DNA of 64,000 bases, from contig JBEKXF010000013.1 in the NCBI GenBank assembly GCA_049512315.1, positions 1-64,000 of the forward strand, written 5' to 3'. Shown in pieces: positions 8,378 through 15,756 of this stretch (positions within the stretch are counted from its first letter, which is position 1; each line of letters starts with the position of its first letter). The DNA comes from Candidatus Aminicenantales bacterium (GTDB lineage Bacteria > Acidobacteriota > Aminicenantia > Aminicenantales > Saccharicenantaceae). The notes below the pieces were generated by a model. The model was not told the origin of the DNA. It worked only from the letters and a program-made list of their open reading frames with translations, and did no database searches. The translations under genes and the position numbers were made by a program.

Positions 8378-9676
8378 ATGACCAACCATGAACCCGGTCC
8401 CGCTCCCGCCACGGCGCCCGTCCGTCACTACGGGATGGTCGCTCTCATCTTCCTGACCTTCTTCGTCATCTCGCTGGTGACCAATGTCATCAGCGCCATC
8501 AATCCCGACGTCGGCCAGAGTTTTAACCTCAGCCTGACGCTGGTCGGCCTTCTGGCCTTTTCCTTCTTCATCGCGTACGGAGTCATGTCCATCCCGGCCG
8601 GCATGCTCCTCGAGAGATTCCGGGAGAAGCCGGTCATGATCGCCGCGTTCTCGCTGGCCGTCGCCGGGGCCTTGCTGATCTCCCTCATTCCCAGCTACCC
8701 GATCTTTCTGCTCTCGCTGTTCTTGATCGGAGCCGGCATGGCCGCCCTCCAGGTGGCCATCAACCCCCTTCTGCGCGTCTCGGGTGGCGAGGAGCATTTC
8801 GCCTTCAACTCGGTCATGGCCCAGCTCATCTTCGGCAGCGCCTCCTTCCTGAGTCCGTTCATCTACTCCTATTTCGTCCGGAACATCGGCCAGGCCGGCG
8901 GCGAGGGCAAGCCCCTCATCGGACTGATGTCGAAGCTCGTCCCGGCCAACCTGCCCTGGGTTTCCGTCTATTGGGTCTTTGCCGTCATTCTCTTCGCCAT
9001 GGTCGTGGTGTTGGCCGCCGTCAGGTTCCCGCCCGTTATCAAGAAGGAGGAGGAGCGGGCCGGCGCCTGGGCAACCCACAAAGCGCTTTTCAAGAACAAG
9101 GTCGTCCTCCTCTACTTCCTCGGGATCTTCACCTATGTCGGGACGGAGCAAGGCGTTTCGTTCTGGATCTCCAAGTTCCTCAAGATCTACCACGGCTACG
9201 ATCCCCAGACGGTCGGCGCCAAGAGGGTCGCTCTGTTTTGGCTCCTGATGACCGTCGGCGGCGTGCTCGGTCTCGTCCTGCTCAAGCTCTTCGACAGCCG
9301 GAAGGTCCTGGTCGGGTTCGCCGTCGCGGCGATCGTCTTTCTGAGCCTGGCCCTCTTCGGGCCGGGGCCTCTGGCCCTGGTGATGTTCCCTCTCATGGGC
9401 TTCGCCGCCTCGGTCATGTGGCCGATCATTTTCTCCCTCGCCCTGAACTCCGTCTCGAGCCACCACGGCTCCTTCTCCGGGATCCTTTGCACCGGTATCA
9501 TCGGCGGGGCGCTCGTGCCCCTCATCATCGGCCGCTTAGGGGACGCGTTCGGCCTCCGCCAGGGCATGCTCTTCCTCTACCTGACCCTGGGTTACATCCT
9601 GAGCATCGGACTCTGGGCCAAACCGATCATTCTGAACGAGACGATCTTCCGGAAAAAGAAACAGGAGGCCGCATGA
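8378..9676 (+). CDS. MFS sugar transporter, FucP/GluP (fucose/glucose-galactose permease) family
   Basis: About 12 hydrophobic segments; LQVAINP, YVGTEQG, SVMWPIIFSLAL motifs. Confidence 0.85.
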   Translation: MTNHEPGPAPATAPVRHYGMVALIFLTFFVISLVTNVISAINPDVGQSFNLSLTLVGLLAFSFFIAYGVMSIPAGMLLERFREKPVMIAAFSLAVAGALLISLIPSYPIFLLSLFLIGAGMAALQVAINPLLRVSGGEEHFAFNSVMAQLIFGSASFLSPFIYSYFVRNIGQAGGEGKPLIGLMSKLVPANLPWVSVYWVFAVILFAMVVVLAAVRFPPVIKKEEERAGAWATHKALFKNKVVLLYFLGIFTYVGTEQGVSFWISKFLKIYHGYDPQTVGAKRVALFWLLMTVGGVLGLVLLKLFDSRKVLVGFAVAAIVFLSLALFGPGPLALVMFPLMGFAASVMWPIIFSLALNSVSSHHGSFSGILCTGIIGGALVPLIIGRLGDAFGLRQGMLFLYLTLGYILSIGLWAKPIILNETIFRKKKQEAA

Positions 9677-10527
9677 GCCGGGACACCGTCATCGGCGTCG
9701 ACCTCGGCGGGACGAACGTCCGGGCCGGCGTCGTCGAGGGCGGCCGTCTCACCGATGTCCGGTCCGTCCCGGTCCGGAGCCAGGGCTCGGAGAGGGACGT
9801 TCTCGAGGACATCTTCAGCGCCATCGACCCGGTCCTGCGGAAGGACGTCGCGGGGATCGGCGCCGGCGTCCCCTCGGTCATCGACCTTAAAAGCGGGGTC
9901 GTCTACGACGTCCAGAACATCCGCTCCTGGAAGAAGGTCCCGCTCAAGGCCTATCTCGAGGAGCGCTATCATCTTCCCGCCTACGTCAATAACGACGCCA
10001 ACTGCTTCGCCGTCGGCGAAAAGTATTTCGGCAAGGCGAAGCCCTACGATCACGCGGTCGGCCTGATCGTCGGGACCGGGCTGGGGGCCGGGGTCATCGC
10101 CAACGGAAAGCTGTATTCCGGGACGAACTGCGGGGCGGGCGAGTTCGGCATGCTCCCCTACCTCGACCGGAACCTCGAGGCGTATGCGAGCGGTCAGTTC
10201 TTCGAGCGCGTTCACGGCGTCACGGGCCGGGAGCTCGCCGGGCGGGCGGAGCACGGCGACAAGCGGGCCCTCGATATCTTCGCGGAATTCGGGGCCCACC
10301 TCGGGGAGGTCATTAAGGCCATCTGCTACGCCGTCGACCCCGAGGCCATTGTCCTGGGCGGGTCGGTCAGCAAGTCCTTCCGCTTCTTCCGCCAGACAAT
10401 GGGAGCCGCGTTCCAGACCTTCGCCTATGCCATCACCAAGGAACGGCTGAAGGTCGAGGTTTCGGAGACCGAAAACATCGCCATCCTCGGCGCCGCCGCC
10501 CTCTACTACGATGCTTTGGCGAAATAG
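9673..10527 (+). CDS. ROK family sugar kinase (glucokinase-like)
   Basis: GVDLGGT, VNNDANC, GTGLGAG, GEFG, LEAYASG, ILGAA; ATGA overlap with MFS stop. Confidence 0.88.
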   Translation: MSRDTVIGVDLGGTNVRAGVVEGGRLTDVRSVPVRSQGSERDVLEDIFSAIDPVLRKDVAGIGAGVPSVIDLKSGVVYDVQNIRSWKKVPLKAYLEERYHLPAYVNNDANCFAVGEKYFGKAKPYDHAVGLIVGTGLGAGVIANGKLYSGTNCGAGEFGMLPYLDRNLEAYASGQFFERVHGVTGRELAGRAEHGDKRALDIFAEFGAHLGEVIKAICYAVDPEAIVLGGSVSKSFRFFRQTMGAAFQTFAYAITKERLKVEVSETENIAILGAAALYYDALAK

Positions 10528-10617
10528 GGCGTTTCCTTTTTTTGCTTTGTTGACAGCCTTCCGGCGGGCAGGCATCTTATGTCATCCATCATAGCTCTTA
10601 TACAAGGAAAGATGAAC

Positions 10618-11505
10618 ATGATCAGAAATCATAAAAATGTTTATCGGACGGCCGCAGGGGCCGCGACGCTTGGGCTGCTGCCCCTCCTGGCCATGGGACC
10701 GGCCCCCGTCCGCGGCGAGGAAAGCCCAAAAAGGCTCGTCGGCGCCTGGAAGGCCACGGCCGAGCTGAGCTACGTCGTGACCGGAGGCAACACGTCCACC
10801 TCGGCCTTCAGCCTCGGGACCACCTTCAAGCGGAACTGGGAGAAAGACGCCCTGACCATCAAGGGCTTCGCCCTGAGCAGTCATGACACGACCGTGACGA
10901 GATCGGCCGTCGGGACGGAGACGGATTTCAACGTCATCGAGCTGAAAACCAAGCGCCTGGTGGCCGAAAATTTCATCGTCGCGGCCCAGTACGACCACAA
11001 CTTGTCGAAGAAGGTCGTGGCCCAGTTCGGCCTCGGCTGGGACCGCAACCGCTTCGCGGGCGTCGCCAGCCGGGCCATCCTCAGCGCGGGCGCGGGCTAC
11101 GCCTGGGTCGAGACCAAGCGGACCCTGTTCAAGACGGACGGCGGCTTGACATACACCATGCGCAAATACTTCGGCCAGTCGGCGTCCTCGTTCGCCGGCT
11201 TCCGGGGGATCGCCACCTTCGAGCAAAAGATCCTGGAGACGTCCTCATTCGCAAGCCAGTTCATCTTCGACGAAAACCTGAAGAGGACGGTCGATTGGCG
11301 CTACGACTGGACGAATTCCGTGACCGCCTCGATCTCCAAGTCCCTGGCCCTCAAGACGAGCCTGCGGATTCTCTACGCCCATCTGCCGGCCGACGAGGCC
11401 GTGCCGCTCTTCGACCTTGACGGACTCCCGACGGGTCTGACCGTCCCGGTGCCCTTGAATAAGGTTGACACTTTCTTCACGACTTCGATCGTCATCAACT
11501 TTTAA
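10618..11505 (+). CDS. DUF481 family outer-membrane beta-barrel protein
   Basis: Signal-like N-terminus; ELSYVVTGGNT, WDRNRFAG; amphipathic strands; C-terminal Phe. Start could also be 10612. Confidence 0.7.
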   Translation: MIRNHKNVYRTAAGAATLGLLPLLAMGPAPVRGEESPKRLVGAWKATAELSYVVTGGNTSTSAFSLGTTFKRNWEKDALTIKGFALSSHDTTVTRSAVGTETDFNVIELKTKRLVAENFIVAAQYDHNLSKKVVAQFGLGWDRNRFAGVASRAILSAGAGYAWVETKRTLFKTDGGLTYTMRKYFGQSASSFAGFRGIATFEQKILETSSFASQFIFDENLKRTVDWRYDWTNSVTASISKSLALKTSLRILYAHLPADEAVPLFDLDGLPTGLTVPVPLNKVDTFFTTSIVINF

Positions 11506-11510
11506 ATTAA

Positions 11511-11579
11511 CGGTGACACACAACTAAATACCTTAATTAGGGACCCGTGCCTATTTCGGTAATGAGTTGTGTGTCACCG
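11511..11579. repeat. AT-rich long inverted repeat (REP/REPIN- or MITE-like hairpin)
   Basis: CGGTGACACACAACT (11511-11525) is the exact reverse complement of AGTTGTGTGTCACCG (11565-11579); extends to 22 bp with 2 mismatches; inner TAGG/CCTA. Confidence 0.8.
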
Positions 11580-11669
11580 AAATTGACCGGGCCCCATTTT
11601 CCCAGTAGAATAGTCGAGAATGAGACCCGCCGGAATGGGGAATGGCAGCGCCTCGAGGAGGGGATGCCT

Positions 11670-12101
11670 ATGAAAAAGAGATACTGGCGCTGCTTTGTCT
11701 GCAACGACATCCACTACGGGGTCGCCCCGCCTGAGCTCTGCCCGACCTGCAAGGTCCTGAACGCTTACGTGGAGATCACGGCGGAGGAGGCGCGGAAGAT
11801 CCTGGGCGGAGGGCCCGACACCGCTTTCGCGCCGGTCGATTTCCGGCAGGCCATCGAACGTTTCGCCACCGGAAACGAGTTCATGGTCAACCCCGACGGG
11901 GACAAGGTCGAAACCCTGCTCCGGGGGATCTTCGAGAACGAGAAGAACCACGGCTTCAAGTATTGCCCCTGCCGCCTGCGGACGAAGGACTGGGATGAGG
12001 ACTTGAAGCTCGTCTGCCCCTGCAACTTCACGATCCACGAGACGTACCGGGGAGTGAAGGACGGCGAATGCTGGTGCGGACTCTTCGTCAGGAGGAAATA
12101 A
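11670..12101 (+). CDS. Ferredoxin:thioredoxin reductase catalytic subunit with N-terminal rubredoxin-like domain
   Basis: N-terminal WRCFVC...PPELCPTC (CxxC...CxxC); C-terminal YCPCR...VCPC...GECWCGLF, the FTR-c CPC/CPC/CxC pattern. Confidence 0.88.
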   Translation: MKKRYWRCFVCNDIHYGVAPPELCPTCKVLNAYVEITAEEARKILGGGPDTAFAPVDFRQAIERFATGNEFMVNPDGDKVETLLRGIFENEKNHGFKYCPCRLRTKDWDEDLKLVCPCNFTIHETYRGVKDGECWCGLFVRRK

Positions 12102-12382
12102 TGGCAAGACTGCTCATGTTCCACGGGAGGGAATGTCCGCACTGCAAGAAGATGATGCCCGCCGTCGAGAAGCTCGAACAGGAGACCGGCGTCCGTTTCG
12201 AGAAGCACGAGGTTTGGCACGACGAGAAGAGCGCCGACCTGATGCGGTCCTACAAACCCGTCATCACGCCCAAGTGCGGCGGCCAGCTCAGGGTCCCGAC
12301 CTTTCTCAACGCCGAGACAAACGACGTCATCTGCGGTGAGGTCGAGTACGACAAGCTCAAGGCCTGGGTCGAGAAAAAATAA
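12101..12382 (+). CDS. Thioredoxin/glutaredoxin-like protein
   Basis: ECPHC active site, cis-Pro motif VPTF, extra Cys in KCGG and ICGE; TAATG overlap with FTR gene; SD GGAGG. Confidence 0.88.
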   Translation: MARLLMFHGRECPHCKKMMPAVEKLEQETGVRFEKHEVWHDEKSADLMRSYKPVITPKCGGQLRVPTFLNAETNDVICGEVEYDKLKAWVEKK

Positions 12383-12458
12383 CCCGGAGATCTGAGGCCG
12401 GACCCCGAGGGGGTCGCCGGCGGAAATCGAGCGGAGAATCACGGGAGGGGGTAATCCG

Positions 12459-13538
12459 ATGATCGAAAGCTTCGACCCGCTCAAGGGCGAACGGCTCCAG
12501 ATCCTTGACGAGGCGGGCAGGGTCCGGCCGGACCTCGAGCCCGCGATCGATCGCGAATCCCTTCGAAAAATGTATATCCAAATGGCAACGGCCCGGGCCG
12601 CCGACACCAAGGCCCTTAAACTCCAGCGCCAGGGGCGGCTCGGGACTTTCGCCTCCAGCCGGGGTCACGAGGCCTGCCAGGTCGGCGTTGCTTCGGCCAT
12701 GCAAGGTCCGGACTGGCTCTTCCCTTACTTCCGAGACCTGGGGATGTACATCACCCTGGGCTACCCTCTTCAGGACTATTTTCACTACTGGATGGGGAAC
12801 GAAGCCGGGCTCCGGACGCCCGAGGGGCTGAACGTCTATCCCCTTGCCATCCCGGTCGCGTCGCAGATCCTCCACGCCGTCGGCGCCGGGATGGCTGCCA
12901 ACTATCGGAACCTCAAGATCGCCGTGGTCACGACGTTCGGCGACGGGGCGACGTCGGAAGGCGATTTCCACGAGGCCATGAATTTCGCCGGCGTTTTCAA
13001 GACGCCGAACGTCTTTGTCTGCTACAATAATCAGTTTGCGATTTCGGTGCCGCGAAGCCGGCAGACCGCCTCGGCGACGATCGCCCAGAAGGCCTTCGCC
13101 TACGGCTTCCGCGGTGTCCAGGTGGACGGCAACGACATCCTGGCCGTTTACATTGCCACGAAGGAGGCCGCCGAAACCGCGAGGAGCGGCGGGGGGCCGA
13201 CCCTGATCGAGGCCTCTACCTATCGGATGGGCGACCACACGACCTCCGACGACGCCTCCCGATACCGGACCAAGGACGCGGTCCTCGAATGGGAAAAGAA
13301 AGACCCCATCGTCCGGTTCCAGCTCTATTTGAAAAAGAAGGGCTTCTGGAACGAGGCCTACGAAAAAGAGGTCCAGGACCGGGCCTCGGAAGCGGTGGAA
13401 AAGGCCGTGGACGCGGCCGAAGCACGACCGCCCGCCGCCGTCGAGGACCTGTTCGCTTTCGCCTACGCCGCGCTGACCCCGAACCTCAGGGAGCAGTTGG
13501 CCGGCCTCGACGCCTTCCTGAAGGGAGACGCCCGATGA
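12459..13538 (+). CDS. pdhA: 2-oxoacid (pyruvate/branched-chain) dehydrogenase E1 alpha subunit
   Basis: LQRQGRLGT, TPP motif GDGATSEGDFHEAMNFA...NN, YRMGDHTTSDD. Confidence 0.92.
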   Translation: MIESFDPLKGERLQILDEAGRVRPDLEPAIDRESLRKMYIQMATARAADTKALKLQRQGRLGTFASSRGHEACQVGVASAMQGPDWLFPYFRDLGMYITLGYPLQDYFHYWMGNEAGLRTPEGLNVYPLAIPVASQILHAVGAGMAANYRNLKIAVVTTFGDGATSEGDFHEAMNFAGVFKTPNVFVCYNNQFAISVPRSRQTASATIAQKAFAYGFRGVQVDGNDILAVYIATKEAAETARSGGGPTLIEASTYRMGDHTTSDDASRYRTKDAVLEWEKKDPIVRFQLYLKKKGFWNEAYEKEVQDRASEAVEKAVDAAEARPPAAVEDLFAFAYAALTPNLREQLAGLDAFLKGDAR

Positions 13539-14509
13539 TCATGACCATGGTCCAGGCCATCAATCAGGCCCTCGCCCAAGAAATGGCCCGCGATGACCGA
13601 TACCTTATCCTCGGCGAGGACGTCGGCCGCGACGGCGGTGTCTTCCGGGTCACGGAAGGGCTGGTCGACAAGTTCGGACCGGGGCGGGTCATCGACACGC
13701 CCCTCGCCGAATCTGCCGGGGTCGGGGCCGCCATCGGTATGACGGCCCTGGGGTTGAGGCCCATCGTCGAGATCCAATTCATGGGCTTCATCTATCCGGC
13801 CTTCAACCAGATCGTCTCGCATGTCGCCCGCCTCCGGAACCGGACCCGGGGCCGCTTCCCCGTACCGTTGACGATCCGGACGCCCTACGGCGCCGGCGTC
13901 AAGGCCCTCGAGCACCACTCGGAGAGTACGGAAGCGCTGTTCTGCCAGATCCCTGGGCTAACGGTCGTCGTCCCGTCGAACGCTTATGACGCCAAGGGAC
14001 TCCTCATCGCTTCCCTCCGGAGCGAAGACCCCGTCATCTTCCTCGAGCCGACGAAGCTCTACCGGGCCGACAAGCAGGAGGTCCCTGAAGAACCTTATGA
14101 AGTGCCCCTCGGGCAGGCCAAGATCGTCCGGGAGGGCAAGGACCTGACCATCGTCGCCTGGGGAGCGATGGTCCCGGTGGCCCTGAAGGCCGCGGAGAGG
14201 GCGGCGGCGGAAGGGGTGAGCGCGGAGGTCGTCGACCTGCGGACCCTCTCCCCGATGGACCGGGAAACTGTGGTCGCGTCCGTGAAGAAAACCGGCCGGG
14301 CCATCGTCCTTCATGAAGCGCCGAAGACGTGCGGCTTGGGAGCGGAAATTGCAGCTCTGATCGGCGAGCACGCCCTCCTCAGTCTCAGCGCCCCCGTCCT
14401 CCGGGTCACGGCGCCGGACATCACCGTGCCGCTCTCCAAGAGCGAGGACTATTATTACCCGAGCCCGGAGCGGCTGCTCCGCGCGATCCACGAGATCATG
14501 GAGTTCTGA
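13535..14509 (+). CDS. pdhB: 2-oxoacid dehydrogenase E1 beta subunit
   Basis: GEDVGRDGGVFRVT, DTPLAES, EIQFMGF, HHSES, VVDLRTL; ATGA overlap. Confidence 0.92.
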   Translation: MIMTMVQAINQALAQEMARDDRYLILGEDVGRDGGVFRVTEGLVDKFGPGRVIDTPLAESAGVGAAIGMTALGLRPIVEIQFMGFIYPAFNQIVSHVARLRNRTRGRFPVPLTIRTPYGAGVKALEHHSESTEALFCQIPGLTVVVPSNAYDAKGLLIASLRSEDPVIFLEPTKLYRADKQEVPEEPYEVPLGQAKIVREGKDLTIVAWGAMVPVALKAAERAAAEGVSAEVVDLRTLSPMDRETVVASVKKTGRAIVLHEAPKTCGLGAEIAALIGEHALLSLSAPVLRVTAPDITVPLSKSEDYYYPSPERLLRAIHEIMEF

Positions 14510-14511
14510 AC

Positions 14512-15756
14512 ATGGCCAAACAGTTCCGGTTCCCCGACGTCGGGGAGGGCATCACGGAAGGCGAGATCGTCCGCTGGCTGGTGAAAGAGGGAGACGAGGT
14601 CAAGGCGGACCAGGCGCTGGCCGAAGTCGAGACGGACAAGGCCATCGTCGAAATGCCCTCGCCGTACTCGGGGACGATCCTCAAGCTCCATTTCAAGGAA
14701 AAGGACATCGTCAAGGTCGGACAGGTCCTGGTGACGGTCGGTGAAAAGGGCGAGGCCGTGCCCGAGGCGGGGGTGCCGGCCGAAAAGGTGGCCGCCCTGC
14801 AGACCGGAGCGGCTCCCGCGTCGGTTGCGGCAGCAGCTCCGGCCTCGGCCTCCGCCGCGGCGCCGCTGGGAGGCCCAGCCCAGGCCACACCAAAGGTTCG
14901 GAAGTTCGCCCAAGAGCTGGGCATCGCCCTCGCAACGATCCAGGGCACGGGCCCCGGCGGCCGGATCACCGAAGACGACGTGCGGTCGGCCAAGGAGAAG
15001 CCCGCCGAAAAAAAACTCGAGATCAAGGTCAAGGCGAAATACGACCTCTACGGTAACGTGGAACGGATCCCGCTCCGCGGCGTCCGCCGGGCCACGGCCA
15101 GGCACATGCGGGAATCGCTGGACAAGGCCGCCCACGTGACGCATTGCGACGAGGCGGAGGCCGCGAAGCTGGCCGCGCTTCGCGAGAAGATGAAGGCGGA
15201 GGCCGAGGCCAGGGGGATCAAGCTGAGCTATCTCCCCTTCGTCGTCAAAGCCGTCATCGAAGCCCTCAAGCTGCACCCGACCCTCAACTCGATGCTCAAC
15301 GAGGAGGCAGAGGAGATCATCGTCAGGAAATACTACAATATCGGAATCGCGGTCGACATCCCCGACGGCCTGATCGTTCCCGTGCTCAAGATGGCCGACC
15401 AGAAGTCGGTCCTCGAGATCGCCGAGGAGATCCAGAACCTAGCCAGGGCGGCCCGGGAGCGGGCCCTCGACCTGGCCGATCTCAAGGGCGGAACCTTCTC
15501 CATCACCAACGTCGGCGTCATCGGCGGCACCGCCGCGACCCCCATCATCAATTATCCCGAGGTGGCCATCCTGGCCACGATGAAGATCGATGACCGGGCC
15601 AGGGTCGAGAACGGCGTCGTGGTCGTGAAAAAGACGCTGCCCCTATGCCTCTCCTTTGACCACCGGGTCATCGACGGGGCCGAGGCGGCGCGGTTTATGA
15701 AAGACCTCATCCGCTTCCTGGAGGAGCCGGAAAAACTGCCGCTCGCCGGCGAGTGA
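14512..15756 (+). CDS. pdhC: Dihydrolipoamide acyltransferase E2
   Basis: One lipoyl domain (EVETDKA), Ala/Pro-rich linker, peripheral-subunit-binding domain (ATPKVRKFA...GTGPGGRI), catalytic DHRVIDG. Confidence 0.92.
   Translation: MAKQFRFPDVGEGITEGEIVRWLVKEGDEVKADQALAEVETDKAIVEMPSPYSGTILKLHFKEKDIVKVGQVLVTVGEKGEAVPEAGVPAEKVAALQTGAAPASVAAAAPASASAAAPLGGPAQATPKVRKFAQELGIALATIQGTGPGGRITEDDVRSAKEKPAEKKLEIKVKAKYDLYGNVERIPLRGVRRATARHMRESLDKAAHVTHCDEAEAAKLAALREKMKAEAEARGIKLSYLPFVVKAVIEALKLHPTLNSMLNEEAEEIIVRKYYNIGIAVDIPDGLIVPVLKMADQKSVLEIAEEIQNLARAARERALDLADLKGGTFSITNVGVIGGTAATPIINYPEVAILATMKIDDRARVENGVVVVKKTLPLCLSFDHRVIDGAEAARFMKDLIRFLEEPEKLPLAGE

Follow-up and report, generated by a model that had tools for sequence, protein, structure and literature searches.

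In a 64,000-nucleotide stretch of a Candidatus Aminicenantales genome (positions 1 to 64,000 of contig JBEKXF010000013.1; hereafter the window), two genes for a possible thiol-electron relay were found directly in front of the E1 and E2 genes of a 2-oxoacid dehydrogenase complex. The first (11670..12101, + strand, 143 aa) encodes a fusion of a rubredoxin (PF21349, residues 6–29) with the catalytic domain of ferredoxin-thioredoxin reductase (FTR; PF02943, residues 59–141). It overlaps, at TAATG, the gene of a CPHC redoxin of the thioredoxin fold (12101..12382, + strand, 93 aa). A spacer of 76 bp (12383..12458, + strand) separates the redoxin gene from those of E1 alpha (E1a; 12459..13538), E1 beta (E1b; 13535..14509) and the E2 acyltransferase (14512..15756), all on the + strand. 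The gene after E2 is convergent and belongs to the EamA family. An earlier, sequence-only reading of the window had placed the five genes, the TAATG overlap, the gap and the convergent neighbor in the same way, and all of this was confirmed.

The E1a protein scored 462.7 bits against TIGR03181 (cut-off 411.35), a type that leaves the choice between pyruvate and branched-chain substrates open. E2, the only one found in the genome, comprises one lipoyl domain (TDKA, Lys43), a peripheral-subunit-binding (E3-binding) domain and a catalytic domain. The dehydrogenase set was thus intact in E1a, E1b and lipoyl-lysine E2, and the genome also has lipA and a gene of the ligase family. There was no gene for E3 (dihydrolipoamide dehydrogenase, lpdA) in the 64 kb: a tblastn search with the genome's own lpdA gave no match at E 0.01, as the sequence-only reading had stated.

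A putative sigma-70-like promoter, TTGACC-17-TAGAAT (11583..11611, + strand), precedes the five-gene unit. This consensus match was the sole site of its kind within 11400–12600, where 0.2 were expected, and a comparable promoter-like site was found in 13 of the 17 related loci examined. The spacer had been described as holding a hairpin without a T-tract. The hairpin did not stand, being no better than in shuffled sequences (folding −29.8 kcal/mol, shuffle mean −29.83, z 0.01), and the lack of a terminator on the + strand of the spacer did. In six related loci the redoxin and E1a genes overlap. Spacing and the conservation of this putative promoter suggest that all five genes may share a single transcript, rather than the separate transcription that would have counted against the sequence-only reading.

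The fusion begins with the rubredoxin motif CxxC-x12-CxxC, followed by an FTR catalytic domain (PF02943, 55.3 bits, cut-off 22) with the motifs CPC, CPC, and CWC. By these three CxC motifs, the source in that group of the [4Fe-4S] ligands and the active-site disulfide, it would belong to the FTR catalytic/FDR family. The six FTR-motif cysteines were invariant across 29 aligned rows. Of the 86 related open reading frames (ORFs), near-duplicates included, all had the three-motif FTR set and 85 had the rubredoxin motif. The best sequence matches in the PDB were 4TPU (E 1.3e-13) and then 7PWE; in the fold search 7PWE came top and 4TPU was also matched. The predicted structure was weak around residues 110–121. 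The redoxin was modeled with a pLDDT of 93 and its fold matches were thioredoxins and glutaredoxins, and we are confident in predicting a dithiol redoxin of the thioredoxin fold. Its C12, C15, and P66, the last being the proline expected ahead of the second strand pair, were invariant in the alignment, and all four cysteines (the CxHC pair plus C59 and C78) were unchanged in each of 27 rows from bacteria and archaea. The motif was CPHC in 88 of 88 bacterial ORFs and CVHC in Bathyarchaeia-type rows. Identity with a canonical thioredoxin (WCGPC, TrxA) was rejected; the motif reads ECPHC, PF00085 gave 20.8 bits (below 23.5), and NCBIfam scores fell far below their cut-offs. A modeled complex of the lipoyl domain with the redoxin scored 0.10, below the mark of 0.32.

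The pair formed by the fusion and the redoxin is conserved next to the dehydrogenase genes across the order. Relatives were taken from Ca. Aminicenantales, and a class-wide sample included 108 genomes of the order, which as kin are not independent of one another. An FTR match was found in 34 of the 35 order genomes that carry E2, and in 32 of the 35 an FTR-family gene lies on the same strand within 5 kb upstream of E2. The exceptions were G032 and G156, where the pair is away from E1/E2, and G030, in which the contig breaks off shortly before E1b. Among 40 related loci with the fusion, mostly from the window's family, the redoxin followed directly in 40, E1a was present in 33, and E3 in none. 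In this family the ancestral neighbor guaB was lost (kept in 1 of 40 loci), and E1a was retained. An alignment search of the phylum found the redoxin in 9 of 401 genomes, all within the order, and no relative was found in viral contigs. In family f11 of the same class, E3 lies directly after E2 in 14 of 15 E2 loci, and three f11 genomes have FTR as well as E2, on different contigs in each case. The FTR-family gene of f11 (29 of 72 genomes) was of a different, higher-scoring type, and it was not linked to the E3-bearing dehydrogenase cluster in these three genomes.

The same linkage was found in archaea. Fusion homologues were named from Methanomassiliicoccales, including the protein WP_019176946.1 of Methanomassiliicoccus luminyensis. 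A metagenome scan was limited to the best 80 of 553 confirmed matches, of which 62 were archaeal-type by identity and 29 had at least 2 kb downstream; near-duplicates were kept. These 29 loci contained the redoxin in 29, E2 in 27, lipoate ligase in 27, lipA in 15, and the anaerobic ribonucleotide reductase gene NrdD in 11. E3 was found in none of the 29 (stretches of up to 10 kb searched on each side). Usually the fusion, redoxin, and ligase genes converge on E2-E1b-E1a-lipA; in L199 and L202 a third gene order occurs, with the ligase upstream of E1a. Three different gene orders thus keep the pair beside E1/E2. By NCBI names, L202 is from Bathyarchaeia, and L163, L177, L200, and L204, or their clusters, are from Methanomassiliicoccales. 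The sequence-only reading had made conserved adjacency in relatives a point on which it could fail. The genes stay adjacent across the order as well as in two lineages of archaea, and the association is wider and older than that reading could show. The archaeal cassette appears to encode everything for making and using lipoyl-E2 save a re-oxidant, together with a dithiol redoxin and a rubredoxin Fe-S disulfide enzyme. In its accessible text, one study reports for two metagenome-assembled genomes of Methanomassiliicoccales a "pyruvate dehydrogenase complex", with the subunits unnamed (PMC7824343).

The bacterial and archaeal modules share a history. In a tree of concatenated E1a, E1b, and E2, 17 bacterial and 11 archaeal loci formed one clade (FastTree 1.0) apart from a limited outgroup of 23 rows, which came from a haloarchaeon, Methylocella, Rhodococcus, and further Acidobacteriota, with no Firmicutes, Thermoplasmatales, DPANN, or Chloroflexota among them. 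The relay tree (FastTree) split like the E1/E2 tree, and between-group identities were 48–49% for the relay and 53–63% for E1/E2. The joint clade, the matching split of the relay and the similar divergence suggested that one module moved between the lineages.

A canonical lpdA does exist in this bacterium. It was found in another part of the genome (G000:C1:112489-113865), which is 96.6% complete, as the sole gene above the TIGR01350 cut-off (481.9 bits, cut-off 408.8), and its redox disulfide, NAD-binding, and His-Glu motifs are intact. Because of this gene the complex cannot be called E3-less here, and the idea of an organism without E3, raised by the sequence-only reading, was not borne out. 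Its caveats were sound: lpdA is encoded elsewhere, and E2 does keep the peripheral-subunit-binding domain. The expected correlation of FTR/redoxin–dehydrogenase adjacency with lpdA absence was not seen in bacteria, since 35 of 35 E2-bearing order genomes have lpdA. In the class-wide sample lpdA was present in 104 of the 108 order genomes, E2 in 35, and among 41 relatives lpdA was missing from one only, a 62% complete genome. GcvP and lipA were each found in 39 of the 41 relatives, and this genome carries two GcvH genes. Since lpdA occurs in genomes that lack E2 as well as in those that have it, together with glycine cleavage, its function need not lie in this complex. The question whether a canonical lpdA elsewhere serves the complex was therefore answered for its existence, and its presence would mean availability to this E2 rather than use by it. 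The lpdA gene lies directly upstream of nuoA and a complex I operon (G000:C1:112474-113874; L010:9475-10878), as it does in 14 of 30 related loci from two families.

Two clues to the use of E3 were set aside. The binding domain of E2 looked unremarkable whether its cluster was linked to the pair or carried E3, and it is also a docking site for E1 of this type, so it tells nothing about E3 use. The absence of E3 from the cluster was rejected as stand-alone evidence, since 8 of the 23 outgroup clusters likewise have no adjacent E3 and no relay of any kind; a missing E3 gene alone is weak evidence.

Our tentative interpretation, to which we give somewhat less than an even chance, is that the five genes form a module that is co-transcribed and inherited as a unit, and that its redoxin and rubredoxin-FTR fusion offer dihydrolipoyl electrons an NAD-independent exit, alongside lpdA in this organism. 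By established chemistry, E1 and lipoyl-E2 would convert 2-oxoacid and CoA to acyl-CoA, CO2, and dihydrolipoyl-E2. The four-cysteine redoxin would then take the dithiol electrons from the lipoyl arm and hand them to the active-site disulfide of the fusion. The [4Fe-4S] center of the fusion might split the pair into single electrons, which could pass to the rubredoxin iron and on to an acceptor such as rubrerythrin, for which the genome contains two genes. The lipoyl arm would be re-oxidized in this way without NAD or flavin. In this bacterium the relay would run beside an lpdA that glycine cleavage also uses; for the archaeal cassette there may be no other route of re-oxidation. By redox potentials, the path from dihydrolipoyl through the CPHC redoxin to the rubredoxin iron is downhill overall, given an oxidant. 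Lipoyl proteins are reported, in the accessible part of one source, to donate electrons to the thiol proteins AhpD, Ohr, and OsmC (PMC8945050). The thiol-relay interpretation of the sequence-only reading was in this sense partly supported.

Several observations weigh against this module with an oxidative relay. The available text on characterized FDR enzymes describes the opposite direction, with reduction of a thioredoxin (PMC6262447, PMC7278568). An intact lpdA is available in this genome and in every E2-bearing genome of the order, and the relay-less outgroup clusters without adjacent E3 show that E3 can be absent from a cluster in any case. The cross-domain link probably reflects one origin followed by transfers, judging from the trees, and not independent recurrences. 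The linkage is also imperfect: G032 and G156 carry E1/E2 apart from the pair, and unrelated genes lie between the redoxin and E1a in G076 and G184. Of 18 loci picked by hand outside the window's family, 16 had guaB and 13 had E1a, so guaB is an equally conserved neighbor. An FTR match occurred in 38 of 73 order genomes without an E2 match, at least two of these being of another FTR type, and in the archaeal loci L200 and L209 the pair is present but E1/E2 and ligase are not. FTR in genomes without E2 and these two loci indicated that the pair has a use apart from the complex.

Such a use would be accounted for if the complex relied on lpdA and the pair served its reductive upkeep, with electrons passing from ferredoxin through the Fe-S center and the disulfide to the redoxin, which, after exposure to oxidants, would reduce oxidized lipoyl groups or cysteines in the complex as well as in the lipoylation enzymes. 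This would explain why the pair is kept without E2, because 39 of 41 relatives have GcvP and as many have lipA, and it fits both the intact lpdA and the co-direction of the pair with lipoate ligase genes in Methanomassiliicoccales-type loci. Reduced ferredoxin could be supplied by three ferredoxin oxidoreductases matching the POR_N family. However, an NADPH thioredoxin reductase is already encoded in the genome, and, to judge by the potentials, a rubredoxin iron is poorly suited to pass electrons from ferredoxin on to a disulfide of low potential. The archaeal cassette, with lipA and ligase yet no E3, would be left unexplained. The direction is the one reported for FDR in the accessible parts of the sources (PMC6262447, PMC7278568), and on balance we regard upkeep as a credible explanation that is nevertheless rather unlikely to be the right one. 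It is less likely still that the pair is a general thiol system to which E1/E2 became a neighbor once, borrowed its promoter and was transferred with it, with no biochemical link. A single shared origin would cover all lineages, and outside the window's family the pair stays within a block of secA-guaB ... panD whether E1/E2 is present there or absent; the two unlinked genomes and the two with inserted genes agree with this as well. Yet the link persisted when the window's family lost both flanks, through an inversion, and in the third arrangement of Bathyarchaeia-type loci, and no E2-bearing genome of the order was shown to be without the pair, the FTR match being in 34 of 35 and the contig of G030 ending upstream of E1b.

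The archaeal neighborhoods suggested a further role, in which the redoxin feeds NrdD with electrons drawn from ferredoxin via the fusion or from dihydrolipoyl-E2. In 11 of the 29 archaeal loci, the two without E1/E2 among them, NrdD is encoded a few genes away, and a reference title names FDR as delivering electrons to the class III ribonucleotide reductase of Methanosarcina barkeri. However, NrdD was found in 39 of 41 relatives, including genomes in which the fusion was not found, and in this genome it is on another contig. NrdD was rejected as a member of the shared module because it is near-universal in the order and the bacterial and archaeal copies are only 27% identical; as an account of the pair we consider its supply improbable. 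Just past the cassette, an AIR-synthase-like gene and the anaerobic ribonucleotide reductase were observed in L161, L163, L172, L192, L200, L209, and L222 (Methanomassiliicoccales-type), and the same genes adjoin the relay where the archaeal cassette is missing.

Among known systems, the FDR of Methanosarcina acetivorans (4TPU) is similar in having an FTR-type domain with three CxC motifs and a rubredoxin-like domain in one chain, and it reduces a thioredoxin-like partner according to the accessible text (PMC6262447), just as the fusion here is paired with a redoxin. In 4TPU, however, the rubredoxin is C-terminal and the third motif is CYC, whereas here the rubredoxin is N-terminal and the motif CWC; the fusion also has a four-cysteine redoxin of its own, to which it is translationally coupled, and is linked with E1/E2. 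With its domain order reversed and CWC in place of CYC, it does not have the Methanosarcina-type arrangement. The glutaredoxin-FDR fusion of Desulfotalea psychrophila (7PWE) likewise combines an FDR domain with a small redoxin, but here the redoxin has a gene of its own and a rubredoxin forms the N-terminal domain. The heterodimeric FTR of plants and cyanobacteria carries its variable subunit as a separate chain, and its third motif contains a histidine. Here this position is a tryptophan, and no separate gene lies between the neighbors (the variable-subunit family was not searched genome-wide).

The dehydrogenase itself resembles the Gram-positive/archaeal type in the E1a score above the TIGR03181 cut-off, in the three E2 domains, and in that the genome holds lpdA, lipA, and a gene of the ligase family. 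It differs in that no linked locus has an E3 gene in the cluster and the rubredoxin-FTR fusion and redoxin stand there instead. Transfer from a dihydrolipoyl protein to a dithiol protein is described for Lpd/SucB-AhpD-AhpC, Ohr, and OsmC, as far as the accessible text goes (PMC8945050). In those systems, however, the electrons come from NADH via E3 and end in a thiol peroxidase, whereas the proposed sink here would be an Fe-S disulfide enzyme with rubredoxin. Bypasses of E3 are also known: E. coli lpdA suppressors reportedly use glutaredoxin to re-oxidize protein-bound dihydrolipoate (work attributed to Feeney, 2011), and thioredoxin with its reductase is said, by the Andreesen group, to act as lipoamide dehydrogenase in glycine-fermenting clostridia. 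Unlike the present case, these bypasses belong to a laboratory mutant or are flavin/NADP-linked, and they have neither an Fe-S FTR nor gene linkage to E1/E2. The accessible parts of three further papers held nothing decisive on the relay (PMC11237513, PMC6471790, PMC12071522). No description of the linkage of FTR and redoxin to E1/E2 was found in the titles and abstract openings searched, a scope outside which most subscription papers fall.

To our knowledge, E3 is regarded as obligatory in 2-oxoacid dehydrogenase complexes. The bolder possibility, which the gene content makes conceivable and which we hold to be doubtful, is an E3-replacing complex whose third step would be carried out by the redoxin and a rubredoxin-[4Fe-4S] disulfide enzyme, in a cassette passed among anaerobic bacteria, methanogens, and Bathyarchaeia. 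If so, acyl-CoA would be made with one-electron iron carriers as the sink; for example, pyruvate oxidation could be kept going and peroxide removal fed when ferredoxin oxidoreductases are damaged by oxidants. An encoded Fe-S/thiol alternative would then explain the E1, E2, and lipoylation genes in methanogens, and this would be the first enzyme of the FTR family to work oxidatively. If one of the milder readings holds, the locus would still point to what may be the partner and the target of an unstudied type of FTR with an N-terminal rubredoxin. The question is directly testable in vitro, as the cultured M. luminyensis has the fusion and the five proteins are small or standard.

Some further features of the genomes were recorded. 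Upstream of the unit, a block with an MFS transporter, a ROK-like gene, and a DUF481 gene (window 8378–11505) is conserved only in the window's family. In L133, L142–L145, and others (G156, G027, G039, G028, and G179), the relay lies between secA-guaB and convergent pan genes, and these pan genes, for synthesis of a CoA precursor, were recognized by eye. A second, distant E1a/E1b pair without E2 (G000:C29:35457-37383; L016:7443-9387) was found amid apparent sugar-nucleotide or polysaccharide genes. Interrupted genes, in which an assembly error is possible, were the fusion gene, split in L084:8001-8430 and L086:8001-8430; E1a, split in G156 (L132:7062-8127), where it is unlinked from the relay; and, in G135 (L130:5456-6300), E1a and E1b, where the end of the former and the start of the latter are missing. 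Other FTR architectures were two rubredoxins followed by FTR, rubredoxin-glutaredoxin-FTR, FTR-Rieske, CoA-binding-FTR, glutaredoxin-FTR-DUF3422, and SLOG-FTR; they were found in the proteins P0245, P0289, P0307, P0337, P0365, P0375, P0391, P0393, and P0302.

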